Below the pieces are notes generated by a model. The model did no database searches, was not told where the DNA came from, and saw only the letters and a list, made by a program, of their open reading frames with translations. The position numbers were made by a program, and so were the translations under genes. From the NCBI GenBank assembly GCA_024405895.1, contig JAKSNW010000004.1, positions 32,827-96,826 on the forward strand: a DNA stretch of 64,000 nt. Reading direction: 5' to 3'. Below, piece after piece: positions 4,406 to 51,532 of the stretch (positions are counted from its first letter, which is position 1; each line of letters opens with the position of its first letter). This DNA comes from Paludibacteraceae bacterium (GTDB lineage Bacteria; Bacteroidota; Bacteroidia; Bacteroidales; Paludibacteraceae).

Positions 4406-5386
4406 TTATTGACGGAGCATCCATGCTCGTCGCATATTAGGGCGTGTCTGACGGACGTATTCAATATATCCCAGCGCCTCATCTTTCAATGAGAAGCTAC
4501 GGAGAGAAACACGATAAGTTTCTCCTTCACCAACAACAAGAACCTGTGGTTCGTCGCCCTCTTCCAAAATCAGTTGATCAATAAAATGTTCAGCAGACTG
4601 TCTACTTGGAAGACTGGCAATTATCACATGGTGACGTTTTTCGTTTTTCTGCTCAGGTTTGGTTTTAGAATTACCAGTACCATACAAAGCAGATACAGAA
4701 GGGACAACGTTGGGAGCAAGCACAAACTTTTCCACCTTCGGCATCTCTGCAACCTCCTCAACAGCCTCTTCAACAGGTGCAGAAGTTACACGCATGGTAT
4801 CACACTCCCATGTCGGCACAAAGAAACCTGCTTTCTGACTGGTTTGATTGTGAAGTGGAGCCATCGATAAGCCAAGCACAACAGCCACAATGGAAGCATA
4901 GCGAAGCATTCGCCTTGACAATGTGATATGAATCGTATCTTTTGTCTTCTCTGCTTCTGCAGCAGTCTCTACTGCAATCATTTCCGGCAATCGAAGCATA
5001 GGCATCGCCATATTCTCCGGCAGATAGACAGCAGCCATTGGAGTAAAGTCAAGATTACCTTCTGCTGTCTTAACAAACGAGCCAATACGACCAAGTTCAT
5101 ATTTCTGACCCGCATTAACTGTTTCAAGAAGTACACTCACTTCTTCTCGTACCAAAGCAGAAGCCTCAACGAATGAAATCTCGCGTTCTTGCATCAAAGA
5201 CTGAGCCAGCAATCCATCCTCATGATTCAACAAAGCATTAAATCCGACTCTGTAGGAAGGTGAATTAAGCATTCCGTCAGACACGTAAGCGCTTTGTCGC
5301 TGAGTGACGAAACCACCTAAACCAGCAACAATTACACACTCCTGTTCACGGAGCAATCGTTCGATATGTTGAGCTATCGTTTGCAT
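4406..5386 (-). CDS. HU-like N-terminal domain / C-terminal SPOR domain protein
   Basis: 326 aa. The N-terminus (IERLLREQECVIVAGLGGF) resembles bacterial HU-CCDC81-like domains. There is one central TM segment. The C-terminus (HHVIIASLPSRQSAEHFIDQL...YRVSLRSF) is SPOR-like. Confidence 0.6.
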   Translation of the reverse strand: MQTIAQHIERLLREQECVIVAGLGGFVTQRQSAYVSDGMLNSPSYRVGFNALLNHEDGLLAQSLMQEREISFVEASALVREEVSVLLETVNAGQKYELGRIGSFVKTAEGNLDFTPMAAVYLPENMAMPMLRLPEMIAVETAAEAEKTKDTIHITLSRRMLRYASIVAVVLGLSMAPLHNQTSQKAGFFVPTWECDTMRVTSAPVEEAVEEVAEMPKVEKFVLAPNVVPSVSALYGTGNSKTKPEQKNEKRHHVIIASLPSRQSAEHFIDQLILEEGDEPQVLVVGEGETYRVSLRSFSLKDEALGYIEYVRQTRPNMRRAWMLRQ

Positions 5387-37456: not shown

Positions 37457-37529
<73 letters not shown>

Positions 37530-37531
37530 CG

Positions 37532-37562
37532 AAGCGGCACTAAACGGTGCCGCTTTCTTTTT
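37532..37562 (+). terminator. Rho-independent terminator after tRNA-Lys
   Basis: 9-bp stem AAGCGGCAC / GTGCCGCTT with a 6-nt loop, followed by TCTTTTT. Confidence 0.75.
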
Positions 37563-37635
37563 GTCTAAACAATGACAATACACTTGTTTTATCAAGAAAA
37601 GAAAAGACAACACAACAACAACACATCATTTGAAT

Positions 37636-38388
37636 ATGAAGAAGATTCTTCTGCTCATCCTATTTATCGGATGTGCATTTTTCGCAAGCGCAAGAGACAT
37701 TTGTCCTGGCTACCAAGGTATCGACATCTCCGATTACTCAGGCAAGGTTGTATGGACAGAAGTAGCAAAGGACACAAACATTCAGTTTGTCTATATGCTT
37801 GCCACAGTGGGCGGTGACTCAGTCAACCCAGTTTTCAAATCATACTTAAGTGGCTGCAAAAAAACACGTCTAAAAGCAGGAGCTTACCATTGCATGACAA
37901 CTACAGCCACCATTGAAGAGCAGTTTCAAAATTTTGTTAGCCACGTACACAAAGACAGTATAAAACTTGTCCCGATGATCTACGTCTCAGAATGTGAATA
38001 TTGGACCGCCGACGAAGTAATCGACAGTTTGAAAAGATTCTGCGATCTGCTTGAGGCGCATTATGGCAAGAAACCTGCCATCTACGCCCTCAATGCCATC
38101 TACAACCGTTACCTCACACCAGTTTTCAATGACTACGCCCTTTATATCATCAAATATTCAGATGTCCGTCCTATCATCCATGGTGGCAACGATGGTATCC
38201 GCATGTTATGGCAATACACCAACAAAGGCAAGATTCGTGGCTTCGAGAAACCCGTCAACCTTGTAAAACTCTGGACAGCCCGCATGCTTGAACTAAACCT
38301 CATCATCCCGAAAAAATACGTAGTCAACCACAAAGCCCCCGCCAAAAAGAAGATAACAGCAAAACACCACATACATAATAAAGGCTGA
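37636..38388 (+). CDS. glycoside hydrolase family 25 lysozyme/muramidase-like protein
   Basis: The ATG at 37636 gives MKKILLLILFIGCAFFASA (signal peptide), then GYQGIDISDYSGKVVW...FVYMLAT...AGAYH, typical of GH25. The track start at 37630 is a TTG. Confidence 0.75.
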   Translation: MKKILLLILFIGCAFFASARDICPGYQGIDISDYSGKVVWTEVAKDTNIQFVYMLATVGGDSVNPVFKSYLSGCKKTRLKAGAYHCMTTTATIEEQFQNFVSHVHKDSIKLVPMIYVSECEYWTADEVIDSLKRFCDLLEAHYGKKPAIYALNAIYNRYLTPVFNDYALYIIKYSDVRPIIHGGNDGIRMLWQYTNKGKIRGFEKPVNLVKLWTARMLELNLIIPKKYVVNHKAPAKKKITAKHHIHNKG

Positions 38389-38409
38389 CCTCGTTAGAAG
38401 TCAGCCTTT
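38380..38409. terminator. hairpin between the convergent GH25 and helicase genes; left bracket of the accessory block
   Basis: 10-bp perfect stem AAAGGCTGAC / GTCAGCCTTT with a 10-nt loop. It overlaps the GH25 stop codon, and the T tracts are weak on both strands. Confidence 0.5.
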
Positions 38410-38427
38410 GGTGTTTGTAGACGTTTA

Positions 38428-40491
38428 CTACTGATTTTTAGAAGAGACTTCACCGAAGTCCTGAAATTTGATTCGTAAAACCAAGCTAGCAACAGACTTT
38501 GGGGCTTTTTCTCGTTCTTTTTTTAACATAGCATCAAACTCGACTTCTGGCAGATCCGAGTTGAAAGCTTCTATCAAATCGTTTTCTTGCGTTGACTCAA
38601 GTGTTAGTTTCTTACGTTTCATCAACATACGCATAATATGAATACCCTTGTCATACTTAGGACGAACTTCAATAAGTTTCTGCATAAGATTGAGTCCTGG
38701 GTCCCCAATGTGCAACTCATTAAGCACTGCTACCATATAAAGGACTTTGGCATCGGGAGTTGACATTTCAAAATTTTCACCTAAAAGACAATTCACCTCA
38801 TCGGACTCATGGTAACGCTTCAACATAGCTAATGCACGAGACTTCACAAAAAGTGCCTCTGAACAATAATGTTTGCTCAGCACACGATTGGCAAAATCGA
38901 GTGCAGTCTCATACTGTCCGGCATACAGACAAAGCATAGCAGTCAAGAACTCTGTAGTCCAATGATGAGCAGAGAATAGTTCCTTCGGAACCTCTTTAAT
39001 ACAATCTATCAAATGCTCGTCACATACCACAGTATCAAGGAAACGCTTTGCCTGCTGCACTGCTTCTTTGATATCTCCTTCTTGAACTTTTTTGTTTACT
39101 AACATCAAATACTGTCTTGCAGCTTCATCGTAGTCATATTTTCTCAGAGATTCAAAGACAGCCCTACCGCTTTCTATTTCATTATTAATAAGTCGTTTAT
39201 CATTATACCCACTAGCATAAGTTATAATCTCCCTACTAGTATGAGCATATTGTGGAATAACATCATTAGACAGAAACAAACCATCTAACGAACGAACACG
39301 ACTTAAAGCCACATAGAGTTGCCCTGCAGCAAAAAGGCCACGACTTAGATCCAATGACATCTTGTCAAAAGTCATACCCTGACTTTTATGAACTGTGATA
39401 GCCCATGCCAACTTCAGGGGATATTGGGTAAAAGTTCCAGTTACCTCCTTTTTAAGTTTACGTGCTTCACGATCATACTCATAGCTTACAGATTCCCAGG
39501 ACACACTTGGCACCACATAAACATTTCCGTCGTTGATTTCAACATGTATCTCATCTTTGACAAGCTTTACAACCTTACCAAGAGTTCCATTGGCCCAACG
39601 TTTATTTGGATCGTTGCGTGTAAAAATAACCTGAGCACCGACCTTTAAACGAAGATTCAACTCTACCGGTAATTTCTTTTCATCGAACTTACCTGAAATC
39701 GTTCCCTCATAAACAAACTCCTCCAAGTCAATCTCTGCAAGATGCTGCTGGTTTATTATTTCGGCAGTCTTATTGAGAGAAGTAAGAGTAATGACCATAC
39801 CATCCTTGCTATCTGGTTGAGCCACCCGTTGATTAAGAAGCATGATATCCTCCGGGGTCACCTTATTCATGCGCACATTCTCAAGAACACGGAGAAACTT
39901 TGGATCATCGTCTTGACGATAGACTTTCCTAAATTCAATCTTTACAAGACGCATGCGTTTGAAAACATCGGCCTTATAAAAGAAAAAATCGTTAGTTTTA
40001 TAAATATCGCGAAGCAATTCGCTCTCAGCGCCTTGTCTTACTACAGGAGGTAATTGAAACATATCACCAACAAAGATCATCTGTTTTCCACCAAAAGGCT
40101 GAGAATTACGGAGTGCCTTGCGTAAAGTATAATCTATAGCATCGATGATATCACATCTCACCATCGAGACTTCATCAATGATTATGGTGTCTGCATGCAA
40201 AAGAGTAAGTATTCGTTCACGGTTCAGTCGTCCTAATGTATTTGGCACGCAAACCTCCATAGGAAGCCCAAAGAAAGAGTGAATCGTATCACCCCCAGCC
40301 AAGATGGCAGCAACTCCTGTTGGGGCCAAGGTGATGAATTGCTTGTTGACCATCTTCTGAACATTGCGCAAGAAGGTGGTCTTGCCGGTTCCCGCACGAC
40401 CCGTGAGGAAGAAACTGCTGTTGGTGTTAGCAATGAGTTCGTAAGCGAACTTTTGCATTGGGTTTTGGTTATCAATCTGCATCTGTTCCAT
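38428..40491 (-). CDS. PIF1/RecD-like SF1B DNA helicase with a C-terminal helical-repeat (TPR-like) extension
   Basis: ATG at 40491 (MEQMQIDNQ...). It has Walker A (GRAGTGKTT), Walker B (IIIDEVSMV), FVGDMFQLPPV, AITVHKSQGMTFD and LYVALSRVRS. About 240 further residues are predicted helical. Confidence 0.85.
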   Translation of the reverse strand: MEQMQIDNQNPMQKFAYELIANTNSSFFLTGRAGTGKTTFLRNVQKMVNKQFITLAPTGVAAILAGGDTIHSFFGLPMEVCVPNTLGRLNRERILTLLHADTIIIDEVSMVRCDIIDAIDYTLRKALRNSQPFGGKQMIFVGDMFQLPPVVRQGAESELLRDIYKTNDFFFYKADVFKRMRLVKIEFRKVYRQDDDPKFLRVLENVRMNKVTPEDIMLLNQRVAQPDSKDGMVITLTSLNKTAEIINQQHLAEIDLEEFVYEGTISGKFDEKKLPVELNLRLKVGAQVIFTRNDPNKRWANGTLGKVVKLVKDEIHVEINDGNVYVVPSVSWESVSYEYDREARKLKKEVTGTFTQYPLKLAWAITVHKSQGMTFDKMSLDLSRGLFAAGQLYVALSRVRSLDGLFLSNDVIPQYAHTSREIITYASGYNDKRLINNEIESGRAVFESLRKYDYDEAARQYLMLVNKKVQEGDIKEAVQQAKRFLDTVVCDEHLIDCIKEVPKELFSAHHWTTEFLTAMLCLYAGQYETALDFANRVLSKHYCSEALFVKSRALAMLKRYHESDEVNCLLGENFEMSTPDAKVLYMVAVLNELHIGDPGLNLMQKLIEVRPKYDKGIHIMRMLMKRKKLTLESTQENDLIEAFNSDLPEVEFDAMLKKEREKAPKSVASLVLRIKFQDFGEVSSKNQ

Positions 40492-40495
40492 AGTT

Positions 40496-40999
40496 TTATT
40501 GTTCAATTGCTGGAAGTATTTGAGTAAGACGAGTATTAAAGTCACTATCCAAGAAACTCTTGTAGCAGCCATTGACGATATTTTTTGCCTGTTCTTCCAG
40601 TTGCTCTTTCGGCATGGACGAGCGCTGCGTCTTCAGTATGCCCTCAAAGAAATTGCGTACCATAGTCTCCGATTCCTGGCGTATGAACGTCTCGCTGCGG
40701 AATATCTTGTCATAATCGCGTTTCTGAACAAGTTCCAGTCTGGTGCCGTTGAAGGCATAGACTTCAATGCTGTCGATGTATGTGCAGTTGTGGTAAAGTC
40801 CGACCTTCTCCACGATGACGATACGCTCGCAGAATCGCACGCCTTTATAGTAACGATGTCCGTATCCGCTTTCGTACTCGTCGCAGATGAACATCTTTTG
40901 ACCTTCGTTCCACATAGGGATGTGAGCTCTTGTGTTGCCAAATGTTGGCAAGAACTTGTCGAACAAGTCTTTGTTAATCGCTTTTGTGAGTGATGCCAT
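40496..40999 (-). CDS. hypothetical protein, paralog of the next gene upstream
   Basis: 167-aa ORF with an ATG start. Its stop is 4 nt before the helicase ATG. It shares the pattern YYK..R...R..V......G....T....I..FA.NG with the 147-aa neighbour. Confidence 0.7.
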   Translation of the reverse strand: MASLTKAINKDLFDKFLPTFGNTRAHIPMWNEGQKMFICDEYESGYGHRYYKGVRFCERIVIVEKVGLYHNCTYIDSIEVYAFNGTRLELVQKRDYDKIFRSETFIRQESETMVRNFFEGILKTQRSSMPKEQLEEQAKNIVNGCYKSFLDSDFNTRLTQILPAIEQ

Positions 41000-41056
41000 G
41001 TCTAGTCAGTTTTTTCTTGGTTAGTAACTAAGGTTGTCTGTTTTCTGTTCTACAGC

Positions 41057-41500
41057 TTATCGGAGCATCTTTTGCTGTGTCTCTTCAATCATGGCTCTTG
41101 AGAAGTCGAGCAATTGACTGTCAGCAATGACGCTTCCCATGGCCTTTGCCTGACCTGCGAGAAAGTCCTTGAGCATGATGATGCTTTGCTCCTTCGCGAA
41201 TTGCTCAGAGAAGCATCGCCAGTTGCTGCCACCCCAGAACTTTTGGGAGATGATGTTTGCCTTCTGACCGTTCCAAGCGAAGAGCGTGATACCGTTCAAG
41301 AAGGTGTGAACGTAACCTTCGCCGAGGTGGTAGTATACGGCCAATCGGTCGGAGAGACGGATTGCCTTGTAGTAGGTGTTGCCAGCTGCGCTGGTGTAAC
41401 CAAGAGTGAGAAACACGTTCTTCTCTGGGTTGTAGGTGATAGAACTGCCCGAGAGGGCTGGGAGTGCCTTAGCGGCTACGAGTGCGAGTGATGTATTCAT
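41057..41500 (-). CDS. hypothetical protein, paralog of the 167-aa gene
   Basis: 147-aa ORF with an ATG start. The core (GNTYYKAIRLSDRLAVYYHLGEGYVHTFLNGITLFAWNGQ) aligns by eye with GHRYYKGVRFCERIVIVEKVGLYHNCTYIDSIEVYAFNGT. Confidence 0.7.
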   Translation of the reverse strand: MNTSLALVAAKALPALSGSSITYNPEKNVFLTLGYTSAAGNTYYKAIRLSDRLAVYYHLGEGYVHTFLNGITLFAWNGQKANIISQKFWGGSNWRCFSEQFAKEQSIIMLKDFLAGQAKAMGSVIADSQLLDFSRAMIEETQQKMLR

Positions 41501-41607
41501 CTGCGTGTCGTTTTTGGGTTTGTTTGTTTAGCGGAATAGGCCGCCACCTCTGTTTTGAAAAAATTAAATATTGTATAAACAAATCCAGCTCTCTCGGAAT
41601 TGCGGTG

Positions 41608-41680
41608 CAAAATTACAGTGTATTTCTCCGCCGACCTAAGAATTTCCAAAGAGTATTGGTTCTTGTATATTTGGAACCAA
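41608..41680 (-). promoter_or_regulatory. promoter P3: -7 box TAATTTTG plus the upstream inverted repeat TTGGTTC-N11-GAACCAA
   Basis: The -7 box is at 41608..41615 (CAAAATTA on plus). Half-sites are at 41656..41662 and 41674..41680, within a perfect 10-bp inverted repeat GTATTGGTTC/GAACCAATAC. The near half-site starts 41 nt from the box. Confidence 0.6.
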
Positions 41681-41698
41681 TACCTTGTTCTTGGAGCA

Positions 41699-42115
41699 TT
41701 ACGCAGCGAACCGTTTCTTGCGGATCGTTTCCATGCAACGTCTTGTGCCGACAATGGAAAAACGAATTGCGGTCAGGTCCTCTGTACGACCATTTTTCTT
41801 ATGGTTTGCTTGTGCCTGGCGTTTCTCGACAATGCGTCTTAGAATGCGGTTTTGGACTTTGGTAGATTGTGATTGAGATTTGCTGTTGAGATTCAGGAAA
41901 ATCCCGTCCAGCACTTCCGTTTCAATCTTTTTGGTTGTGACATCACACACCTCTTTCGCTGATGCAGAGCGATATCTCCTGGTTTTCTCGATTCTTTCCC
42001 AATTTTGGTTGGTTTTGTGACAGGCGTTTGCTGCGCTCTGTTTCTTCTTTGCGTTGTCTACTTTTTGGTTCATTGTCTTCATTGTGTCTTTGTTTGCGTT
42101 TGACTTTTGTTTCAT
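41699..42115 (-). CDS. small, very basic hypothetical protein
   Basis: 138 aa from the ATG at 42115 (MKQKSNANKDTMKTMNQK...). It is K/R/N/Q-rich and has its own promoter P2 upstream. Coding status is uncertain. Confidence 0.4.
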   Translation of the reverse strand: MKQKSNANKDTMKTMNQKVDNAKKKQSAANACHKTNQNWERIEKTRRYRSASAKEVCDVTTKKIETEVLDGIFLNLNSKSQSQSTKVQNRILRRIVEKRQAQANHKKNGRTEDLTAIRFSIVGTRRCMETIRKKRFAA

Positions 42116-42187
42116 AGTGTCTTGATTTATTGTCCCCCACAAAAAAATGCAGCGCCAACTCCGAGGTGGTGCCGAAGTTTGACGCTG

Positions 42188-42260
42188 CAAAAGTAGTACG
42201 TTTATTGCTAATAGAACAATGTATTTGCAACTATAATGGTACCTGTAAAATTGGAACCAT
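42188..42260 (-). promoter_or_regulatory. promoter P2: -7 box TACTTTTG plus the upstream inverted repeat ATGGTAC-N11-GAACCAT
   Basis: The -7 box is at 42188..42195. Half-sites are at 42236..42242 and 42254..42260, with the same 41-nt offset. The 18-nt block TTTGACGCTGCAAAAGTA is identical to P1. Confidence 0.6.
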
Positions 42261-42274
42261 TTAAATACAGTGAA

Positions 42275-43315
42275 TTATCTAAATAATTGTGAGAATTTAA
42301 TCTTATCTTTTATTTCCCAATTTGAAGTGTTGCCATTCACATTCGAATGTTTATTGTTGTATTCTTGATACCATAGAATAACATCGCATAATTGAAGCGC
42401 ATAGCTCTTTAGCAAATATGATGTGTTACCTACATTCTTTAAATATTCTTGAAGGTGCTTGTTCTCATCATCATCATTGGACGAAGTATGAACATCAGAA
42501 CCTGCAGTATGGATCATATGAATCATGTTATCTTGTATAATCTTTGGGAAGACCGTATGATTGACTTCAACAACAGTCGTTTTGTTTTCATCTCGTCCAT
42601 ATGTAACTGGATAACCACTTAGAATAAGATTAGAACATTTTAAGTTTATTTTTTTTTGCCGCGGAAGAAGTCCTTTTTCTATCATGGATCTGAAAATATA
42701 CTCTACGATTTGACGTACTTTTTTGTATTTATCGTTATAATCTTTATTATCAAGTTCAGGAAAATGTATTTCGGATAACAAGTCAGTAAGATAAATATCA
42801 GCATCTGTGTCAATACCTAGATTTGTTATTGCTTCAAATACAGTTTTGTACATTTCATGTATCTTCAAGTCTGCTGAGCGTGATTGACGAGTTGTATACC
42901 TAATACGACGGAATAGAAGATCTCTGTCTGTATTCTTGTCATAAAATGTTTTTTCCCAATCACCATCCCATACATTTCTTGTCTCAGGAATAAGTTCTTT
43001 GATGTCGGTCTCTGCCTGACCCGATAATACATACCACGGAATAAAACGCTGCCCATGGCAGATATTGGTGATAGCGTTCGTCGCATTAATCAGAAAGCGA
43101 GTCGCATTGTCCACACTGTCTTTATGATGCTTGCATTTTGCATCAAGTATAATGGCAGACCAGCGATTGTGGTCACGTTTAAGAGCAGCTTCTGCGTCAT
43201 CCCAACAGTCAAATGCGACTAATTCAAGACCATATTTTGCTGCTTCCATTGGGAATGTTAATCTAACTTCAGGATCATCTTCAACCCATAAAACTTGTAT
43301 GTATTCTATATTCAT
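42275..43315 (-). CDS. response-regulator receiver domain fused to an unrecognised C-terminal domain
   Basis: 346 aa. The N-terminus is CheY-like (IQVLWVEDDPEVR...WSAIILDAKC...WYVLSGQ). Residues from about 140 to 346 are helical with no family I can name. Confidence 0.8.
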   Translation of the reverse strand: MNIEYIQVLWVEDDPEVRLTFPMEAAKYGLELVAFDCWDDAEAALKRDHNRWSAIILDAKCKHHKDSVDNATRFLINATNAITNICHGQRFIPWYVLSGQAETDIKELIPETRNVWDGDWEKTFYDKNTDRDLLFRRIRYTTRQSRSADLKIHEMYKTVFEAITNLGIDTDADIYLTDLLSEIHFPELDNKDYNDKYKKVRQIVEYIFRSMIEKGLLPRQKKINLKCSNLILSGYPVTYGRDENKTTVVEVNHTVFPKIIQDNMIHMIHTAGSDVHTSSNDDDENKHLQEYLKNVGNTSYLLKSYALQLCDVILWYQEYNNKHSNVNGNTSNWEIKDKIKFSQLFR

Positions 43316-43335
43316 TTTATAATATTATAAGTGTT

Positions 43336-43363
43336 AAGGCCAGAGGAAATATCCTCCGGCCTT
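43336..43363 (-). other. intercistronic hairpin between the kinase and receiver genes
   Basis: 12-bp stem AAGGCCAGAGGA / TCCTCCGGCCTT with one mismatch and a 4-nt loop. There is no good U tract on the minus strand. Confidence 0.5.
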
Positions 43364-43376
43364 TATTTTCAAAATG

Positions 43377-45932
43377 TCAAAGTGATAACACAGTATTTGT
43401 ACGTTTGAATGTTAGTACATATTTTACTGTGTAGTCCTCGTTTGGTGACGATATGATTTTCACATCTCCATCATATTCCTTCATTATAGAAACAATCTCA
43501 GAGCAACCAATGCCATTATGACCATTGATGTTGAGTGAAGTGCTGAATCCATACTCCAAAATGTTTGATGTGTCAACCCCATCTGGTATGGATTTTCCGT
43601 TGTTTTCTATGGTAAGTACCATGTCCATACCTGTTGCTTCCCAAGAGAACTTAACCTTGTAATCCTTATTTAGAGGGTTATTAAATCCATGAGCGACAGC
43701 ATTTGCAATGATGTTGTCAAAGATTCGAGTAAGAGCTCTTTTGGGGAAATAAAAAGTGTTGATAGGTTCACCTTTTCTCAAAACAAATCCACTTTTATGA
43801 AAGTCTATTGGAGAACGATTTGTAATAAAATTCTCCCAACCTGTAAGAGCGGAAAATCCCAACCAACCAGCCTTGTTTGATTGAATATATGAGTTTATGA
43901 ACTCTATAGGTTCTATGTATTCTGGTTTACCGAAATCCTCTTCTACATCGGATATCGCAGCCAGTTTAACTTGTATGCTCTTCAACCGACTTTCTAGGTA
44001 AGCAAATGCATCAGCAACAGTTAGGTCATTTATCTCAGATAGTCTGTCGCTATCATCAAGGAAACCACTTTGTCTTCTTCGGCAATTCATCAATGCATTA
44101 AACATAGACCCAAAGGAAGAAAGAGATTGTGTAAGAGCATGTTTCCTCAGTCTCACAGACTTTCGGTAATTTTCATATTGGATCACCCCTTCTTGTTTCT
44201 GTTGCTCTATGGTTTCGTAGAGTTTTTTTTGCATTCGTTCGTGTTGTTGAAGTGTGGCTTGCTTAAACACCTCCAAACTGAATTTGAATGTGTCACTCGG
44301 TGCATTAAGAATCTCGCCTGAAGACTGGGACCCTGAACGAGGAACTGCAGCTTCAACTTGTTGTTGCAGGATTGCCTCAAACTCAAGTTTCCAATTAATG
44401 TCCTCGTGATAGAGAGGAATAACTTTAATTTTGCCAAGAAGGTTGTTGTCAAACTTTCTCATGAGTTTTCCAACACTCATTGCTATAATTTGTTTAACAA
44501 CATAGTCTTCTAATAGAAGCAAGGTCGCTGATGCAACATTAGTACTTACAACTTTAAAGCAACAAATACGTGAAGAAACAGCTACACCGGTCAGGGGGAC
44601 TTCAGATAAATAACCCACCAAAAGTTTTTCACCATTGGAACACATGAAAACGCAAGGTGTTGTAACAACTGCAAAATCTTCCTTTTTTCCGCTATCGTAT
44701 ACGGGTGATAGGTCTGCAACAGAAATGTTTGCATACTTAAACGAAGTCGTTAGGTTTTTAATGGTTACAGCAGGCATAGCATCTTTTGTAGCATGAGTGT
44801 TTAGATCTGCAATAGCCAATACATTGTTCAAGCCTATAGCAAATTTAGGTTTTTCCAACAGGTAGTGCGCTGGTAAAAGTATGTCTGCATCAACCTTGTT
44901 GTAAGGTATTCTCTTGCAAATGTCCGCATTTCCCTTTATCTCAGTATGCAGAATTGCCTCCGTAAATCTTTCAACGTCAAAACGTTTGAGGTTGGATTTT
45001 ACGCCATAGGCACGAGTTGCAAACGTTGCATCAGCCATAACAACCCCAGCGAACTCGGATTCAGTCTTATTTTTGTCAAGACACATGACAAAAAATGAGC
45101 CGTTAGATGTACTGAAAATGTCAGAAGGTAACTGTACAATTGCCTCAAGAGACTTGTCTCTTACAATCATCTTTCTGAAATCTTGCTCAATTTCTCCCAT
45201 GGCTCCTAAAGTGTGCGGTGATACAATGGCAATCATTCTGCCAGTGGGTCTCAAAGCAGCATATAGGTTATGAAGTGATGAATCAAATACATCACAATGA
45301 CTAAGAATACAGTCAACAGATTCAAATGATGGGTGTGGCATCTGTAAAGATTCCGGACTCTTAGGGTATGCTATGTCATAGTCTATACCATTTGCTTGAA
45401 GTCGAATGTTACAAAAAGCCCAAATCCTAGGAGAAGAGACATTACCAGAAATTTTGCATTGCGGAAATCTTAAAGCAAGATCACCATATTCAACATAAGG
45501 AATATAAAGTTTCTCTTCTTCTTCATAATGCAATAATTTAGTCATTAAATCGCATAACTCATTAGAATATTCAAAGAGTGAAATGTCAAGCCACCGCCAT
45601 TCATCACGAAGCGAGAAAATGTGGTTGATGGTTTCTTTATGATGAGAAACAAGATATTCCAATTCTTGTTCTGTGAGTATGTTTTTCTTGAAGGAATCTA
45701 TGAAATAAATCAACTCATTAAAAAGAAGTCCTTCCTTTGGTTCTCCGTTCACAACAGACCATAGTTTGGCAAGAAGTTGTTGGTGTGGAGCATCAACAAA
45801 ACCTAAGGGTAGGTCTACTTCTGGAATCGGCGAATTCAAATCCTTGTACTCTGGTGAGGCCTCCAATTGAGCATTTACTGCGCTTACATACTTGGCTACG
45901 ATAGCCTCTACTGAAAAGTAGTTGTTTTGCAT
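43377..45932 (-). CDS. cytoplasmic histidine kinase fused to an HsdM-like (degenerate) N6-methyltransferase and a TRD-like module
   Basis: First ATG at 45932 (MQNNYF...); the track start at 45953 is a TTG. MTase-like segments: LRPTGRMIAIVSPHTLG, LEAIVQLPSDIF..FFVMCLDKNK and VVMADATFATRAYGVKSNLKRFDVERF. A TRD-like region follows, then RLRKHALTQSL (candidate phospho-His) and GHKL boxes (NIIANAVAHG, ENNGKSIP, GHNGIGCSEI). Confidence 0.8.
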   Translation of the reverse strand: MQNNYFSVEAIVAKYVSAVNAQLEASPEYKDLNSPIPEVDLPLGFVDAPHQQLLAKLWSVVNGEPKEGLLFNELIYFIDSFKKNILTEQELEYLVSHHKETINHIFSLRDEWRWLDISLFEYSNELCDLMTKLLHYEEEEKLYIPYVEYGDLALRFPQCKISGNVSSPRIWAFCNIRLQANGIDYDIAYPKSPESLQMPHPSFESVDCILSHCDVFDSSLHNLYAALRPTGRMIAIVSPHTLGAMGEIEQDFRKMIVRDKSLEAIVQLPSDIFSTSNGSFFVMCLDKNKTESEFAGVVMADATFATRAYGVKSNLKRFDVERFTEAILHTEIKGNADICKRIPYNKVDADILLPAHYLLEKPKFAIGLNNVLAIADLNTHATKDAMPAVTIKNLTTSFKYANISVADLSPVYDSGKKEDFAVVTTPCVFMCSNGEKLLVGYLSEVPLTGVAVSSRICCFKVVSTNVASATLLLLEDYVVKQIIAMSVGKLMRKFDNNLLGKIKVIPLYHEDINWKLEFEAILQQQVEAAVPRSGSQSSGEILNAPSDTFKFSLEVFKQATLQQHERMQKKLYETIEQQKQEGVIQYENYRKSVRLRKHALTQSLSSFGSMFNALMNCRRRQSGFLDDSDRLSEINDLTVADAFAYLESRLKSIQVKLAAISDVEEDFGKPEYIEPIEFINSYIQSNKAGWLGFSALTGWENFITNRSPIDFHKSGFVLRKGEPINTFYFPKRALTRIFDNIIANAVAHGFNNPLNKDYKVKFSWEATGMDMVLTIENNGKSIPDGVDTSNILEYGFSTSLNINGHNGIGCSEIVSIMKEYDGDVKIISSPNEDYTVKYVLTFKRTNTVLSL

Positions 45933-45964
45933 AGAAAAATGTTTTTGTTTCAATTTTGACGCTG

Positions 45965-46036
45965 CAAAAGTACTTTATTTTTACAGTGCTTGTAACCAAA
46001 ATTATCGATATATTGGTTCCTATATATTGGGAACCA
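45965..46036 (-). promoter_or_regulatory. promoter P1: -7 box TACTTTTG plus the upstream inverted repeat TTGGTTC-N11-GAACCA(T)
   Basis: The -7 box is at 45965..45972. Half-sites are at 46013..46019 and 46031..46037 (the last base is a mismatch). The offset from the box is 41 nt. Confidence 0.6.
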
Positions 46037-46041
46037 TTCCT

Positions 46042-47127
46042 TTAGTTTGTTTTAGGATATAAATCAGCTAATTCATGTATACGTTGCGCCATTTTGTGGC
46101 GAATGGTATCTGGTGAAATAATCTCTAATCCTGCTCCCATCTGTATTATATGCCCATAGAATTCGTTGTTCGGCTCGACATCAACCGAGAACTCTGCATA
46201 CTCTCCATCGTCATACAAGCCAAAAGGTTTCACAACATTATAACTCTGATGAAGTGGCTTTGTGTCCATTAGTTTAAATATATATAATGTTCGAGCGCGA
46301 ATAATAATATGTTCTTTCTGGACATCCTTCATGTGGCTTACGCCAACAATATCCTTGAAGAACTCATCATAGAAATGCTTTGGTGCTGGTACATATTTTA
46401 CTTTTGATCTCTCACGAGGTTTTGATTGTATTCTATCAAGAGCTATGTTATAGCCATATACCGGTTTCTTTCCTTCAGCATGACCAAACAGATGCCATCT
46501 GCCGTTATATTCCTTCAGATAGTGCGGGTGAAACAATAGCATAACAGATTCCTCCTCAAAAGGCTTATAGTTTATCTGTAGTACCTTTTTATTAGTAATC
46601 GCTTCATATATGAAAGGCAGAAATTCTATGTTTGTCAAAATACGGTCAAGACTAGCATTGATTACCAACTCTCCTTTCTGTCGCCGAGCCTTTATGTCCA
46701 ACAAATCCTGACAATCCATGAAGAAGTATTCCAACCAAGATTTTGGGAAGAAACCAGCAGAATCCTGACAGAACTTCCAATACTGTCGAAGGTTATTGAT
46801 AGCCTTAGCGTTGCGCATGTCAGCGAGAGGATCATTGTCTTTGCCTATATAACGGAAGCATTTGTTTCGGTTGTTGCCTTCCTCTTCAAAGCAATCGTTG
46901 CCTACCTTCTCGCAAATGGCTTTCTTCAATATGCCAACAGTCTTCTTAAGTTCACCATATCCTTCACAGTTAGATAGGTTGGATGGTAGTTCATTTACAG
47001 AACAACCTAATCTGTCGGCCATAATATTAGCATAAGTAAACCACCGGCGACTTATTAACCACCGATAGGTTATTCTTGAAAATTCGGCTTTATAACTGTC
47101 GCCGTCAAAGAGGTTACTACGTTGCAT
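46042..47127 (-). CDS. WYL domain-containing putative transcriptional regulator (paralog B)
   Basis: 361 aa. VLQINYKPFEEESVMLLFHPHYLKEYNGRWHLFGH...YNIALDRIQSKPR fits the WYL-domain signature, and a C-terminal WCX-like region follows. Confidence 0.8.
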   Translation of the reverse strand: MQRSNLFDGDSYKAEFSRITYRWLISRRWFTYANIMADRLGCSVNELPSNLSNCEGYGELKKTVGILKKAICEKVGNDCFEEEGNNRNKCFRYIGKDNDPLADMRNAKAINNLRQYWKFCQDSAGFFPKSWLEYFFMDCQDLLDIKARRQKGELVINASLDRILTNIEFLPFIYEAITNKKVLQINYKPFEEESVMLLFHPHYLKEYNGRWHLFGHAEGKKPVYGYNIALDRIQSKPRERSKVKYVPAPKHFYDEFFKDIVGVSHMKDVQKEHIIIRARTLYIFKLMDTKPLHQSYNVVKPFGLYDDGEYAEFSVDVEPNNEFYGHIIQMGAGLEIISPDTIRHKMAQRIHELADLYPKTN

Positions 47128-47282
47128 TTTATTAATATTCTTAGTGAGGTGTTTTTATATTTTTCTTGTATCGATGTTAGAATCTTGTTCGTTGTAGGAT
47201 TCTTCCCTTATTGGCAGGAAAACCAGACGCCAGTTTTACCATTCCCCATTAATGCTCCTTTGATTCTATTTAGATTTTCCAT
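47128..47282 (-). pseudogene. possible decayed XRE-type HTH ORF with an in-frame TAA
   Basis: Minus-strand translation from the ATG at 47282 gives MENLNRIKGALMGNGKTGVWFSCQ*GKNPTTNKILTS... . It resembles the Bacteroidota XRE N-terminus NRIK..L.E.GKT.KWLAEQLGK.P.TVSKW. The stop at 47208..47210 sits where Leu is expected. Confidence 0.3.
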
Positions 47283-47304
47283 TTTAATAAATTAATGTTG
47301 AGTG

Positions 47305-47312
47305 CAAAGATA
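47305..47312 (-). promoter_or_regulatory. -7 promoter box (TATCTTTG on the minus strand)
   Basis: CAAAGATA on plus, upstream of the XRE-like remnant and WYL gene B. Confidence 0.35.
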
Positions 47313-47361
47313 CTAAATAATATTGTAACTACAGAACGCAAATGCTATAACGTTTCTTCGA

Positions 47362-47574
47362 TTAATTCTTGTGGTGATGTGTGTTAGAGTTCTTCAAAGT
47401 TTTCTGAGATTCCTTCGTCGATAAACTCTTCGAAACGATTTCCTTTGCATCGGAAGCAGATACCATTATCAATGTGTCAATATTCTTGGAAATATCCAGT
47501 TCCACCACATCTACTACATGGTGTCAAGTGCACTATTTGAAATTCGTCTCTCTCTAATTGTTGAGTGTAGGACA
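47362..47574 (-). pseudogene. small CxxC-CxxC zinc-ribbon-like ORF interrupted by an in-frame TGA
   Basis: My translation gives MSYTQQLERDEFQIVHLTPCSRCGGTGYFQEY*HIDNGICFRCKGNRFEEFIDEGISETLKNSNTHHHKN*. The TGA is at 47476..47478. The second Cys pair lies after the stop in the same frame. Confidence 0.45.
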
Positions 47575-47642
47575 TACCATTACAAGTTAATGATACCATT
47601 ATATAGCATTGATTTTAAGACACTTTATTTCCATTCCTGATA

Positions 47643-48728
47643 TCATTTCGTGGATTTTTTTTGATAATGTTGGTGCATTCTTGCTACTTTCGTTGCTATA
47701 GTTTGACGCAGGATATCGGGCGACACGACTTCGTAGGCTTCTCCCATCTGCAACAAGCGGCCAACGAACTCCTGGTTCGGACGAACGTGCAACTTGATTT
47801 CGCCATAGCACCGACCATCGTGCTCGCCGAAGTCAACAACAGTCTCCTGAGAGTGGTGAATACGTTTGGTTGTAGTGAGATTGAACATGTACGAACTGTG
47901 AATGCGCACAACAACGTCTTCCGGCTTGCTATTCGGGGCGATGCTCACACCATAGATATCGTTAAAGAATTTCTTGTAGTAATCGGGCGAGGCCGAGACA
48001 TATTTCTTGCCATGACAATATCTCGGTTTTCCCTGGATGCGGTCGATGGCTATATTAAAGCCTTCATGAGGGGCATCAGTAACATCTTCTTCTACATAGC
48101 CGAAGAGAAACCATCGGAGGTTAAACTCTTTCAGATACTGAGGATGAAACGTCAGCGTAAGAATCTCTTCGTATTTAGCATTGTACCTGATGGTAAGCAC
48201 CTGACGGTTGACGATGGCTTCGTGCAGGAAGGGGAGCAGTTCTATGTTGGTAAGGCTGTGGTTGAGACTGCTGCTAATGGCCTCCTTTCCCTTTTCCTTT
48301 CGGTGTCTTATCTCAAGCAATTCTTTGTCGTCCTGAAAATAGTGTTCTACCCAAGAAAAAGGAAAAAATCCGGCTGAGTCGACACAGAACTGAACGAAGC
48401 GTTTGAGGTCTTCTCGCGACTTTTGCTCACGAAGAGACCTAAGCGGATCGTCTGTCGGCCCCACATATCTATACGTTTTGTTTTTGTTGTTGCCTTTTTT
48501 CTCTATGGCATTTTCACCTAATTGTTCGACCAGCCATGAAAAGGCTTTCTTGCATTCGCCATAACCGTCTCGGTTGCTAATGGGTACCAGCTCGTCACCA
48601 TCCCAATCGGGATCTTGGCGGAAGATATCAGCATAGGAGAACTCTCTACCCGACATCAGCAAATTGTAGATGATGGCGGTATATTTCGATTTTTGGCCTT
48701 TTCCTAAAAAGCAATTACTCTCTGACAT
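47643..48728 (-). CDS. WYL domain-containing putative transcriptional regulator (paralog A)
   Basis: 361 aa and collinear with paralog B over the full length (VLTIRYNAKYEEILTLTFHPQYLKEFNLRWFLFGY...FNIAIDRIQGKPR). Confidence 0.8.
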   Translation of the reverse strand: MSESNCFLGKGQKSKYTAIIYNLLMSGREFSYADIFRQDPDWDGDELVPISNRDGYGECKKAFSWLVEQLGENAIEKKGNNKNKTYRYVGPTDDPLRSLREQKSREDLKRFVQFCVDSAGFFPFSWVEHYFQDDKELLEIRHRKEKGKEAISSSLNHSLTNIELLPFLHEAIVNRQVLTIRYNAKYEEILTLTFHPQYLKEFNLRWFLFGYVEEDVTDAPHEGFNIAIDRIQGKPRYCHGKKYVSASPDYYKKFFNDIYGVSIAPNSKPEDVVVRIHSSYMFNLTTTKRIHHSQETVVDFGEHDGRCYGEIKLHVRPNQEFVGRLLQMGEAYEVVSPDILRQTIATKVARMHQHYQKKSTK

Positions 48729-48813
48729 AAGTTTTAATTATGCGTGATTCTTTTTGTAAGGCTGAATGTAGAACTTTTATTTTCTAACACTTACGTTCCA
48801 CAACTCAACTTCG

Positions 48814-48821
48814 CAAATATA
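48814..48821 (-). promoter_or_regulatory. -7 promoter box (TATATTTG on the minus strand) upstream of WYL gene A
   Basis: CAAATATA on plus, about 86 nt upstream of the ATG at 48728. Confidence 0.35.
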
Positions 48822-48886
48822 CTTATTTTTCTTAAATAGCGAAACAATTATACACAAAATTTATCTGCGTTAGACTTTTATAAAGC

Positions 48887-48918
48887 AATGGCTGACTTCG
48901 TTTCCGAGGCCAGCCATT
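48887..48918 (-). terminator. hairpin downstream of clpC-like; right bracket of the accessory block
   Basis: 14-bp imperfect stem AATGGCTGACTTCG / CGAGGCCAGCCATT with a 4-nt loop. Its first 16 nt match the 38380 hairpin at 14 of 16 positions. Confidence 0.5.
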
Positions 48919-48943
48919 GTTAGTATTAACGTTATATATTCAA

Positions 48944-51532
48944 TTATTCTATCACTTTCAGTGTATCATTCTCTTTGTCTATGTCGAGGGTGATTGTTGT
49001 TGGATGGGTTGGATGCAAGAGAAGGTATTCCGTCAAGACGGATTCGACATGGTGTTGGATTGCTCGTTTCAGCGGACGAGCGCCAAATTGAACATCATAA
49101 CCCTTGTCTGCAAGGAAGTCTTTTGCTGCAGGTGTTAGGTCGAGTTGGAGGTTCATGGCTGAGGTTCTTGTCATGAGTTCCGCCAATTCAAGGTCTACGA
49201 TACGAAGGATTGATTCCTTGTTCAAAGAATCGAACATCACGATATCATCCACACGGTTCAAGAATTCTGGAGAGAATGTCTTACGCAATGCTTTTTGCAC
49301 AACATCATGTTCACGCAGTTTCACATCAGTACTTGACAAAGTGAAACCGACACCACGACCAAATTCTTTCAGTTGACGTGTGCCTGCATTGGATGTCATT
49401 ATAATAATTGTATTCTTGAAATCCACGCGGCGACCGAGGCTATCTGTCAAATGACCTTCATCCATCACTTGCAGCAAGAGATTGAATACATCCGAATGAG
49501 CCTTTTCTATCTCATCCAACAACAGAATTGAATATGGTTTACGACGAACCTGCTCTGTCAGTTGTCCACCCTCCTCGTAACCCACATATCCTGGAGGAGC
49601 ACCGATGAGTCTGGAGACACTGAATTTCTCCATAAACTCACTCATATCAACACGAATCAACGCATCAGCAGAGCCAAACATATATTCTGCCAGACGTTTT
49701 GCCAAGAGTGTCTTACCAATACCGGTAGGACCAAGGAAGATAAAATTGCCTATTGGTTTATTAGGATCCTTCAAACCGATTCGGCTACGTTGAATAGCGC
49801 GTACTACCGTCTCCACAGCCCCATCCTGTCCAATAACCGTTCCTTTGAGTGCATTGCCCATCTGAGCCAAGCGCTCATTCTCTGCCTGAGCTACACGTTG
49901 AACAGGCACACCAGTCATCACAGCAACCGTCTGCGCCATATCATCTTCCGTAACAGGTACGCGGTTTTCGTCTTGACGACGCATCCACTCCTTTTGCAAA
50001 GCACGAAGATTTTCGGTCATCTGCTGTTCACGGTCGCGAAGAATAGCCGCATCCTCAAAATTCTGATTACTTGCTGCAGCCTGCTTAGCTTCGGTAATCT
50101 GACGAATCTCACGTTCCAGATCCTCAAACTCGGCAGGCAGTTTTGCATTCATCACATGCATACGTGCACCAGCCTCATCCAAAGCATCAATAGCTTTGTC
50201 AGGAAATGCACGGTCGGAAACATAGCGCTCTGTCAAATCCACACAAGCAGCCAATGCTTCAGGTGTATAGACAACCTTATGATGGTCCTCATAGCGCGAT
50301 TTCACGTTCTCCAGAATCACCAAAGTCTCTTCTTTAGTTGTCGGCTCAACGAGCACCTTTTGGAAACGGCGTTCCAATGCTCCATCCTTCTCAATTTTCT
50401 GATGATATTCTCGAGAAGTCGTTGCGCCAATGCACTGGATCTTACCTCTGGAGAGAGCTGGTTTCAAGATATTTGCAGCATCAAGCGAGCCCTCTGCTCC
50501 ACCAGCACCAACTATCGTATGAATCTCATCGATGAAGAGAATTATCTCGTCATGTTCCTCGAGTTCATCCACAATCTTACGGATACGGTCCTCAAACTGA
50601 CCACGATACTTCGTACCAGCCACCAAGACAGCCATATCCAATTGTACAATTCGTTTGCCTTGAAGCACCTGACTCACTTTCTTGTCAACAATACGTTGTG
50701 CAAGGCCTTCTACAATAGCCGATTTGCCAACGCCAGGTTCACCGATGAGCACAGGATTATTCTTTTTTCTACGACTGAGAATCTGAATCACACGTTCAAG
50801 CTCGCGTTCACGGCCAACCATCGGGTCAAACTGCCCTTGCGAAGCCGCCAAAGTCATATCCTTGCTGTAGCTATCGAGCGCTGGCGTACTACCTTTCTTC
50901 TGATTCTCGCCTTTCTTATTCTCTTCAATATGAGGAATGAACGAATCGGAGCCGTCCTCTTTGTCTTCCTCGTCGAAAACCAAATCCTTCGGTTCTTCTC
51001 TCTTTTCTATTGATTTGATTTCATCAATCGGCTTCTCCTCTGGTTTCTGCTCCATTGGATGCTGTTGATTATCGTTTTCTTTCATGTTCGAATTACTTCC
51101 TTCTACTATTTGATCATAGGCATCATGCAACTGCTGTATATACGGTTGCCAAATCGGGCTGTTTTCTGCCAACTTAATGATTGCCAGTAACAGATGCACC
51201 GTATCAACCTGCTGACTGCCCATATGTAAAGCCTCCAGACAAGCCATCTTCTGTAGCGTCAGATATTCCGGCATTGCGGCACGTGCCGAAGTCTGATTGG
51301 AGGTATCATGCTTCCCGTTTTCGTCTTGCTTTGTCATCGACTGCTCTATAGTCTGCTTGATTTCGGGATATGGAACAAACAGACGACGCATTGACTCCAT
51401 GGCAGTACATTGAGGCAAACGGAGCAGAGCCAGAAAGACATGTTCTTTTCCCAGCGTTGACGACCCCAAGCGTTCTGCCTCTTGAGCAGAATAGTTGAGA
51501 ACCTCTGATGCTTCGTTTGTAAATGAATACAT
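48944..51532 (-). CDS. ClpC-like AAA+ chaperone / Clp protease ATP-binding subunit
   Basis: 862 aa with a Clp N-domain, two AAA+ modules ([18 protein letters not shown]) and a short UVR-like middle region. The N-domain to NBD1 linker is long and charged. Confidence 0.88.

Follow-up and report, generated by a model that had tools for sequence, protein, structure and literature searches.

Which protein reads the inverted repeat that lies upstream of three promoters in a 64,000-nucleotide (nt) stretch of Paludibacteraceae bacterium DNA (contig JAKSNW010000004.1, positions 32,827 to 96,826; hereafter the window), and does it switch these promoters on or off? The promoters, P1, P2 and P3, belong to a block of genes that are all encoded on the minus strand (Table 1). 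P1 precedes the gene for an N6_Mtase/HATPase_c fusion (methylase/GHKL) and that for a 346-amino-acid (aa) protein, P2 a basic open reading frame (ORF), and P3 the genes for two small proteins, p147 and p167, and for a Pif1-family helicase; two genes for WYL-domain proteins, WYL1 and WYL2, are located upstream of P1. We propose that each dyad is the operator of WYL1, that the three promoters thereby form one regulon, and that WYL1 activates them, and we assign this statement as a whole a probability of roughly 0.6. Judged from sequence, it is very probable that the dyad is the operator of the island's WYL1-type regulator and defines one regulon; given that assignment, the position of the site and its rigid spacing make activation a good deal likelier than repression.

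In a scan of the 64-kb window, the pattern WTGGTWC-N11-GAACCAW matches exactly at 41656-41680, 42236-42260 and 46013-46037, the same three places at which an earlier note on this DNA had located the dyads. When up to one mismatch was allowed, seven matches were obtained (the three sites on both strands, and one other) against 0.22 expected, and none of 100 shuffled sequences reached seven. The additional match, at 4659-4683, was considered as a fourth site and rejected as a chance occurrence, being placed within a coding ORF (4406-5386, minus strand) and having no nearby TAnnTTTG; the earlier note had likewise seen no dyad elsewhere in the window. The core is better described as a 23-base-pair palindrome, TGGTTCC-N9-RGWACCA, with a slight asymmetry (TGGTTCCAAAT at the promoter-distal side), and written out in full form the dyad reads AATGGTTCC-N5-GGAACCATT. 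An inverted-repeat search of 46000-49000 for further operators near the WYL genes returned the ClpB terminator and weak palindromes only.

The promoter consensus of Bacteroides comprises TAnnTTTG at -7 and TTTG near -33 (PMC7366714). By the presence of TAnnTTTG, all three window sites qualify as Bacteroidota housekeeping (sigma-ABfr) promoters, as do all 17 sites of the protein-first set described below; a scan for sigma-70 promoters gave shuffle level only, as expected in a Bacteroidota genome. In every one of the three cases, GGWACCA and the T of the box are 41 nt apart, which bears out the identical offset that the earlier note had reported, counting from the outer W. If TAnnTTTG is placed with its centre at -7, the dyad extends from about -76 to -54 and is centred near -64, approximately three helical turns (~31 base pairs, bp) upstream of the -33 element; the centre near -60 given earlier is replaced by this value. 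The end of the dyad, 41 nt upstream of the -7 box, is about 17 nt upstream of the -33 TTG. Taken over all sites, the consensus runs AaTGGTTCCAAat..a.aGGAACCAtTa, followed by an A-tract, a TTG 20-22 nt before the box (51 of 84 distinct spacers, ~60%) and TAnnTTTG. The only other intergenic minus-strand boxes in the island are those of the two WYL genes themselves, and both are dyad-less, as had been stated before; in other loci an NTPase operon often ends with the WYL gene, again with no dyad upstream.

Does the arrangement recur where the same proteins are encoded? The methylase/GHKL fusion family is rare, with 20 homologs found, and the WYL1 family is much larger (1205 matches). Together with the window, loci L003, L004, L006, L008 and L011, which were reached through the methylase/GHKL or WYL1 proteins and not through the motif, make up a protein-first set of six loci. 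This set contains 17 dyads, located after the WYL stop codon, before the basic ORF and before p147, and every one of them is followed by TAnnTTTG; the distance is 41 nt for 15 of the dyads, and 40 nt and 42 nt for one each. The synteny between L003 and the window is complete, and the three dyads of L003 are found where those of the window are, 41, 42 and 41 nt from their boxes. The contigs of four WYL1 orthologs (67-83% identity) share a common frame of a WYL1-type gene, variable cargo, usually the basic ORF, and p147-p168-Pif1; the cargo consists of DUF3825, none, an insertion sequence (IS) element plus YeeR_C, and a split Cas13b, respectively, and each contig carries two to four dyads. The related islands occupy different chromosomal sites, adjoining SUI1, greA or rplS.

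We also approached the question from the motif, scanning one genome per species (185,579 species) for TGGTTCC-N9-RGWACCA-N{40,42}-TAnnTTTG. The scan returned 57 stretches, about 53 of them from Bacteroidales (Prevotella/Segatella, Bacteroidaceae, Muribaculaceae, Paludibacteraceae, Parabacteroides and Leyella); two stretches without further similarity, from Trichodesmium and from an unclassified 'bacterium', look like chance background. A WYL1-type gene and/or the 147aa-167aa-Pif1 operon is present within 8 kb in 51 of the 57. As judged by tblastn against the 8-kb stretches, a WYL1-type gene is present in 37, the p147-p167-Pif1 module only in 14, and neither in six, the two chance-like stretches among them; in most of the module-only stretches the upstream sequence is too short to reveal a WYL gene. 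L052 and L047 were considered as counter-examples lacking a WYL gene and were discarded, since in L052 the end of such a gene sits at the edge of the stretch and L047 retains a WYL remnant. The genome scan for dyad plus box and the scan of the window lead us to reject a generic genome-wide element; a dyad common genome-wide at unrelated promoters was among the outcomes that the earlier note had named as overturning its proposal. The proposal itself, one regulon read by one dimeric regulator, is supported by the dyads at homologous promoters in the six protein-first loci and by the 51 linked stretches. A phage origin was also rejected: only four stretches, on three of 2.9 million viral contigs, match, and all represent the same island. 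L029 and L046 are labelled as Eubacteriales/Bacillota metagenome-assembled genomes (MAGs) yet carry the Bacteroidales-type island; the promoters of L046 are identical to those of a Bacteroidales MAG, L011, which looks like mis-binning or mislabelling of L029 and L046. Culturable carriers of the module are Prevotella pectinovora P4-76, Leyella stercorea DSM 18206, Bacteroides rodentium JCM 16496 and Parabacteroides faecalis AGMB00274.

The spacing is 41 nt in 79 of 86 scan sites, and for dyads counted irrespective of a box in all retrieved DNA a box is found at 39-43 nt in 99 of 103. The 84 distinct 41-nt spacers have a pairwise identity of 39%, against 28% for shuffled versions, and a threshold of 60% identity sorts them into 36 classes; because they are so little alike, it appears to be the length of the spacer, and not its sequence, that is under selection. 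At L047 (3264-3406), a dyad has a TAnnTTTG 42 nt away on the opposite strand as well, and may be used divergently.

What, then, speaks for WYL1 as the reader of the dyad? Both paralogs match PF13280 (WYL; 7.9e-07 for WYL1 and 1.6e-04 for WYL2) and the PADLOC WYL profile (1.2e-18 and 1.2e-17), and in both the C-terminal WCX dimerisation domain (PF25583) scores above cut-off; the winged helix-turn-helix (wHTH) at the N terminus of WYL1 has no Pfam match. In the AlphaFold2 (AF2) model of WYL1 (pLDDT, the per-residue confidence score, 75 overall and 81-92 in the N-terminal domain, residues 11-100), the wHTH comprises residues 12-93, with helices 12-25, 32-40 and 57-75 and a beta-hairpin wing at 80-93, and is followed by the WYL and WCX domains. 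A Foldseek search with this model returned 32 significant PDB matches, all of wHTH-WYL-WCX architecture and almost all known transcription regulators: DriD ranks first (8TP8, E 1.6e-10), followed by PafBC (9FND), and then by CapW, BrxR and RspWYL1 (6OAW), and these five are the sole proteins matched over the full length. A sequence search with WYL1 against the PDB gave nothing, the matches coming from the fold search alone.

In most cases no more than ~45 nt separate the WYL stop codon from the start of the first dyad, and no candidate other than the WYL1-type protein is present wherever the flanking sequence suffices. Its wHTH (the N-terminal 110 residues) is conserved beside TGGTTCC dyads in proteins ranging from 83% down to 37% overall identity, with YGELKKA at the start of helix 3 and GNNRNKxFRYxG in the wing among the conserved parts. 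Protein and site also co-vary: L001 and L002 carry the same cargo pair and a WYL protein of only 27-28% identity whose N-terminal domain is unrelated, and in these two loci the TGGTTCC dyad is absent and a different palindrome is found. Linkage and co-variation thus support the WYL proteins as the probable binders. The palindrome of L001 (9935-9953) and L002 (8824-8842), TACGAAcatagaaTTCGTA, lies across the WYL stop codon, ~9 nt upstream of a conserved -7 box and centred at about -30; the adjacent cargo is methylase/GHKL plus a 347-aa protein, and the WYL protein belongs to a different subfamily.

The genes placed under the dyads follow a scaffold order of WYL gene, variable cargo, basic ORF, two paralogous small proteins and Pif1 helicase. 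We tallied the first ORF behind ~100 dyad promoters, and found p147 at 35, the basic ORF at 24, relatives of methylase/GHKL at six, Pif1 directly at two, other cargo at 27 and no called ORF at six. On the basis of this tally, the regulon is a constant helicase module combined with exchangeable, mostly defence-type cargo. Cas13b (type VI-B; PADLOC E 1.4e-176) is encoded directly behind a dyad promoter in L011 (11396-14696, where the gene is split in two), L039, L046 (1718-2415 and 2500-5800, where a CRISPR array with 36-nt repeats separates Cas13b from the next dyad), L052 (236-3508) and L055 (P. pectinovora P4-76). The Cas13b proteins of L055 and L052 start with MNIPALVENQKKYFGTYSV, which we take to be the N terminus of the Cas13b from Prevotella sp. 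P5-125, an enzyme employed in RNA editing. In L017 (421-7955), from the MAG of a rumen Prevotella, a type III-A-like Cas6-Cas10-(gap)-Csm3-Csm4-Csm5-Csx1/Csm6 operon is placed behind a dyad promoter; the upstream sequence available there, in which a WYL gene might lie, is limited to 420 nt. Further cargo comprises a DUF3825 protein in seven loci, a PDC-M16B/TOTE-like protein and, recurrently, a 376-447-aa protein with a glycine-zipper tail. The dyad promoters thus adjoin anti-phage defence genes, as exemplified by Cas13b, Cas6-Cas10-Csm3-5-Csx1, PDC-M16B and the methylase/GHKL fusion. In L004 (5643-10001), L006 (6663-9998) and L008 (5676-9998), the WYL1-type gene, as often, closes an operon that also encodes an NTPase of 1100-1450 aa; the NTPase is nSTAND5-like or PDC-M28B-like, and its stop codon overlaps the WYL start or directly adjoins it, an arrangement suggesting that a sensor NTPase and the regulator are expressed in a coupled manner.

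In the mechanism that we envisage, a WYL1 dimer would bind one dyad per promoter at P1, P2 and P3, and a single protein would in this way co-ordinate the methylase/GHKL and 346-aa cargo, the basic ORF and the p147-p167-Pif1 operon, the WYL regulator genes themselves being transcribed from promoters without a dyad. Bound WYL1 would make a stereospecific contact with RNA polymerase. Such class-I-like activation is favored because the site lies wholly upstream of the core promoter, at a distance that is base-pair-exact across unrelated spacers. By analogy with DriD, PafBC and CapW, the WYL domain may sense single-stranded DNA or another nucleic-acid signal of DNA damage or phage attack, in which case damage or infection would switch on the Pif1 operon and the cargo together.

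Several points weigh against this mechanism. The promoter positions are reckoned from a box centred at -7, with the transcription start taken from the consensus. The genome scan required exact half-sites, and so missed diverged operators and overstates their invariance, the protein-first loci alone being unbiased; in addition, many of the ~100 sites are orthologous and hence not independent events. L047 has kept its dyads with only a 27-aa C-terminal WYL remnant directly before the dyad. The promoters appear complete, with perfect -7 boxes and mostly a TTG at -33, which an activator-dependent promoter need not be, and the characterised defence-associated members of the fold family, BrxR (PMC9122601) and CapW (PMC11662680), are repressors. 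The main rival is accordingly one with the same binder and the same regulon and the opposite sign, in which WYL1 at -54 to -76 would repress or anti-activate until released by a ligand, as BrxR and CapW are; conceivable routes are obstruction of an UP-like A-tract or of the alpha C-terminal domain, and retention of polymerase at the promoter. The A-tracts between the dyad and the -33 element would suit such a mode, and free expression of, for instance, Cas13b or type III cargo could come at a cost. The site, however, overlaps neither the -33 nor the -7 element nor the start, whereas BrxR has its site immediately downstream of its promoter, with a presumed steric effect. A stereospecific contact with polymerase predicts a spacing that stays exact across 36 unrelated spacer classes, which simple occlusion does not; the regulator's own promoter has no operator, and the best structural matches, DriD and PafBC, are activators. 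We therefore regard repression as unlikely, if the most serious of the alternatives, and retain activation by WYL1.

Could the dyad instead be read by another protein? WYL2 is 43% identical to WYL1 and retains both the YGExKKA helix start and the GNNKNKxYRYxG wing, and a role for it as binder, competitor or heterodimer partner is a further point against the assignment to WYL1; orthologs of WYL2, however, were not found in the related loci, where only the proximal paralog WYL1 (46042-47127) has them. The product of the basic ORF, p147 and p167 are likewise conserved island proteins of unknown function, and the p147/p167 paralogs could make a pseudo-symmetric pair. Against these candidates, the basic ORF is missing from several dyad loci, in which p147 is the first gene behind the promoter; L021 and L064 keep WYL, dyad and Pif1 and have lost both p147 and p167; and the p147 model has no match to a DNA-binding fold. 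A host factor would leave the restriction of the motif to these islands unexplained. All told, WYL2 alone, the basic ORF product, a p147/p167 heterodimer or a host factor is an improbable reader. We consider it less probable still that the dyad is a structural element of RNA or DNA, namely a terminator or 3' stabiliser of the upstream gene or a recombination joint for cargo cassettes. It does directly follow the upstream stop codon and recurs at every cassette boundary, and a terminator scan flags the P1 dyad, on the plus strand only. Yet its half-sites are invariant rather than co-varying and would form a stem of 7 bp, the minus strand after the dyad reads ATA/TTA and has none of the T-run of an intrinsic terminator, the fixed distance is that to the downstream promoter and not to the upstream gene, and no recombinase is conserved in the islands.

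The promoters are followed by conserved leaders. The 18-mer common to P1 and P2, to which the earlier note had drawn attention, is real, and combines the -7 box with the 5' arm of a leader element that is conserved. At 48 of 100 dyad promoters the sequence from the TTTG of the box reads TTTGCAGCGTCAA, and 43 distinct leaders fold into a 19-bp hairpin, co-varying in its inner stem, with the loop (A)ACCACC and the 3' arm TTGACGCTGCAAA. In an alignment of 26 sequences, 92.5% of cells are paired, compared with 29-48% when the partner column is slid, and eight pairs change on both sides against 2.0 +/- 1.1 in shuffled alignments, with none of 500 reaching eight. The many U-A to U-G exchanges fit a sense-strand RNA. 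GGTGG, complementary to the CCACC of the loop, occurs 5-11 nt past the stem, with loop/tail compensatory variants CTACC/GGTAG, CCGCC/GGCGG, CCGTC/GACGG, TCAC/GTGA and CACCC/GGGTG; the mean longest loop-tail complementary run is 4.77, versus 3.21 with shuffled tails. The compensatory variants suggest that loop and tail pair as a pseudoknot. P1 holds the 5' arm of the element only, whereas the P2 leader has the complete hairpin and a T7 run, which may terminate the P1 operon too; the element is also found at L003 5316-5375 and at ~40 other loci. P3-type leaders form a separate conserved family (TTTGCATCGCAATTCCGAGAGAGTTGG...). Rfam gave no relevant match at E<=1 in 38000-49000, and we regard the hairpin/pseudoknot as a candidate for a new cis-regulatory RNA.

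Table 1. Features of the WYL-Pif1 block in the window, in order from the WYL genes to the helicase.
Feature	Coordinates	Strand	Description
WYL2	47643..48728	-	361 aa, WYL + WCX; own box 48814-48821, dyad-less
Gap between the two WYL genes			515 bp
WYL1	46042..47127	-	361 aa, wHTH-WYL-WCX; orthologs in all related loci; own box 47305-47312, dyad-less
Dyad P1	46014..46036	-	TGGTTCCCAATATATAGGAACCA; begins 5 nt past the WYL1 stop codon
-7 box of P1	45965..45972	-	TACTTTTG; 41 nt downstream of dyad P1; methylase/GHKL gene start at 45932
Cargo gene 1 under P1	43377..45932	-	N6_Mtase + HATPase_c (GHKL) fusion, 851 aa
Cargo gene 2 under P1	42275..43315	-	346 aa; invariably adjoins the methylase/GHKL fusion
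Dyad P2	42237..42259	-	TGGTTCCAATTTTACAGGTACCA
-7 box of P2	42188..42195	-	TACTTTTG; 41 nt downstream of dyad P2
P2 leader	42140..42191	-	Hairpin 42148-42191 from the TTTG of the box, GCAGCGTCAAACTTCG / CGGAGTTGGCGCTGC, loop CACCACC, then T7 run and GTGG
Basic ORF under P2	41699..42118	-	139 aa from the ATG at 42118; kept in most related loci
Dyad P3	41657..41679	-	TGGTTCCAAATATACAAGAACCA
-7 box of P3	41608..41615	-	TAATTTTG; 41 nt downstream of dyad P3
P3 leader, small hairpin	41530..41545	-	GGCGG-CCTATT-CCGCT; co-varies to GACGG-CCTATT-CCGTC in other loci
p147, first gene under P3	41057..41500	-	Family of 1257 members
p167	40496..40999	-	Paralog of p147
Pif1-family SF1B helicase	38428..40572	-	Start codon uncertain: the ORF overlaps p167

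The ~10-kb block, on a contig from the MAG of a gut Paludibacteraceae bacterium, is flanked by tRNA-Lys(CTT) and a GH25 lysozyme gene (37457-38388) on one side and by clpB (48944-51532) on the other; its G+C content is 36-46%, compared with about 43-52% in the neighbouring genes, and no integrase is present. PADLOC, NCBIfam, Pfam and PHROGs name no known defence system for the block, and give no family match for the basic ORF product, p147, p167 or the 346-aa protein. The first gene under P1 had earlier been called a kinase, which over-reads the sequence: the protein is a fusion of N6_Mtase with HATPase_c (GHKL), and a HisKA domain was not detected. The N terminus of the 346-aa protein appears receiver-like by eye only, with no sequence support from Pfam or the PDB, and a receiver domain is not claimed. 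The AF2 model of p147 (pLDDT 82; predicted template modelling score, pTM, 0.79) has an N-terminal helix, a six-stranded antiparallel sheet (beta-meander) and two long C-terminal helices; it has no significant match in the PDB, the best being a p32/MAM33-like fold with E 0.06, a weak lead only. The helicase core (residues 41-456) matches the Bacteroides Pif1 structures 5FHD/5FTB and 8BNV, and a terminator-like hairpin is located by the helicase gene at 38380-38409. Between the two WYL genes, a small zinc-ribbon-like ORF (47381-47575, minus strand; CSRCGGTG...CFRCKGN) contains an in-frame TGA, and is a candidate for a pseudogene or for recoding.

How does the arrangement compare with known systems? 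In class I CRP-type activation, as at E. coli lac, a dimer binds a palindrome about three turns upstream of -35, with a strict dependence on spacing. The geometry of the dyads is alike, whereas the protein family, the polymerase and the sigma factor (Bacteroidota sigma-ABfr) differ.

DriD, the SOS-independent damage-response activator of Caulobacter crescentus and the best structural match to the WYL1 model, binds as a homodimer to ATACGAC-N7-GTCGTAT, with 7-bp half-sites and an AT-rich centre (PMC10853764). TGGTTCC-N9-GGAACCA has half-sites of the same length and an A/T-rich centre, although its spacer is 9 rather than 7 bp and the half-site sequence is unrelated; the L001/L002 palindrome TACGAAcatagaaTTCGTA is also similar in build to the DriD site. 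DriD likewise serves several promoters as a single regulator. Its site, however, overlaps the -35 region ('type IV'), unlike a dyad centred near -64, and it has a site in its own promoter, whereas the WYL promoters have none. The two proteins share no detectable sequence similarity, and the wHTH of WYL1 has an insert of ~16 residues between helices 2 and 3. PafBC, the actinobacterial damage-response activator, has the WYL fold (9FND), comprises two adjacent WYL paralogs as in the window, and controls a regulon that is, similarly, rich in helicase and repair functions. It nevertheless reads a non-palindromic motif by -10 and needs polymerase for DNA binding (PMC10853764), in contrast to the distant palindrome found here, and only one of the two paralogs is conserved across the related loci.

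BrxR and CapW share the fold class of WYL1, are encoded at the edge of variable defence gene sets and read inverted repeats, and in pEFER two BrxR operator boxes are present in one island (PMC9122601). The analogy that the earlier note drew with these proteins applies to family and context; it does not extend to the operator position, which for BrxR and CapW is in or just downstream of their own promoters and thought to be steric, as opposed to upstream and phase-locked, or to autoregulation, since the regulator's promoter has no dyad. RspWYL1, the type VI-D Cas13d accessory protein whose structure (6OAW) is a significant fold match, is a WYL protein tied to a Cas13 effector, as WYL1-type proteins are in the Cas13b loci; here the effector is Cas13b (VI-B) in place of Cas13d, and the link is made via a promoter-proximal DNA site. 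RspWYL1 is a ribbon-helix-helix (RHH)-WYL protein and is reported to raise Cas13d activity (PMC5935466, PMC6547453).

Defence islands with a WYL regulator and its inverted-repeat operator are thus a known kind of arrangement. New are the position of the operator and its phase-locking, the spread over several promoters in the absence of autoregulation, the constant association with Pif1, and CRISPR genes as cargo; the literature searched contained no paper on this motif, on the Bacteroidales WYL-Pif1 module or on a WYL-Cas13b link. The known WYL layouts are those of autoregulated repressors (BrxR, CapW) and of -35-proximal activators of damage genes (DriD, PafBC). The present one would be a third architecture, upstream, base-pair-fixed, non-autoregulatory and extending to up to four promoters per island, in a phylum that is poorly charted for transcription.

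More tentatively, many gut and rumen Bacteroidales may carry a portable 'immune/damage regulon' scaffold, in which a ligand-sensing WYL activator at about -64 switches on the Pif1 operon and whichever cassette is resident, each with its own ~150-bp module of dyad, promoter and leader pseudoknot. The cassettes observed are VI-B Cas13b with its array, type III-A CRISPR-Cas, DUF3825, TOTE-like and methylase/GHKL genes. If this were true, the leader RNA would add a second, post-transcriptional layer of control, and the repeated modules could act as homology joints for cassette exchange. The expression of Cas13b and type III-A CRISPR-Cas in Prevotella and its relatives would be tied, in a testable manner, to a nucleic-acid-sensing factor and to the Pif1 operon, and the culturable carriers make such experiments feasible. 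The dyad promoter further provides a sequence signature for finding new defence cargo in Bacteroidales, together with a candidate cis-regulatory RNA.

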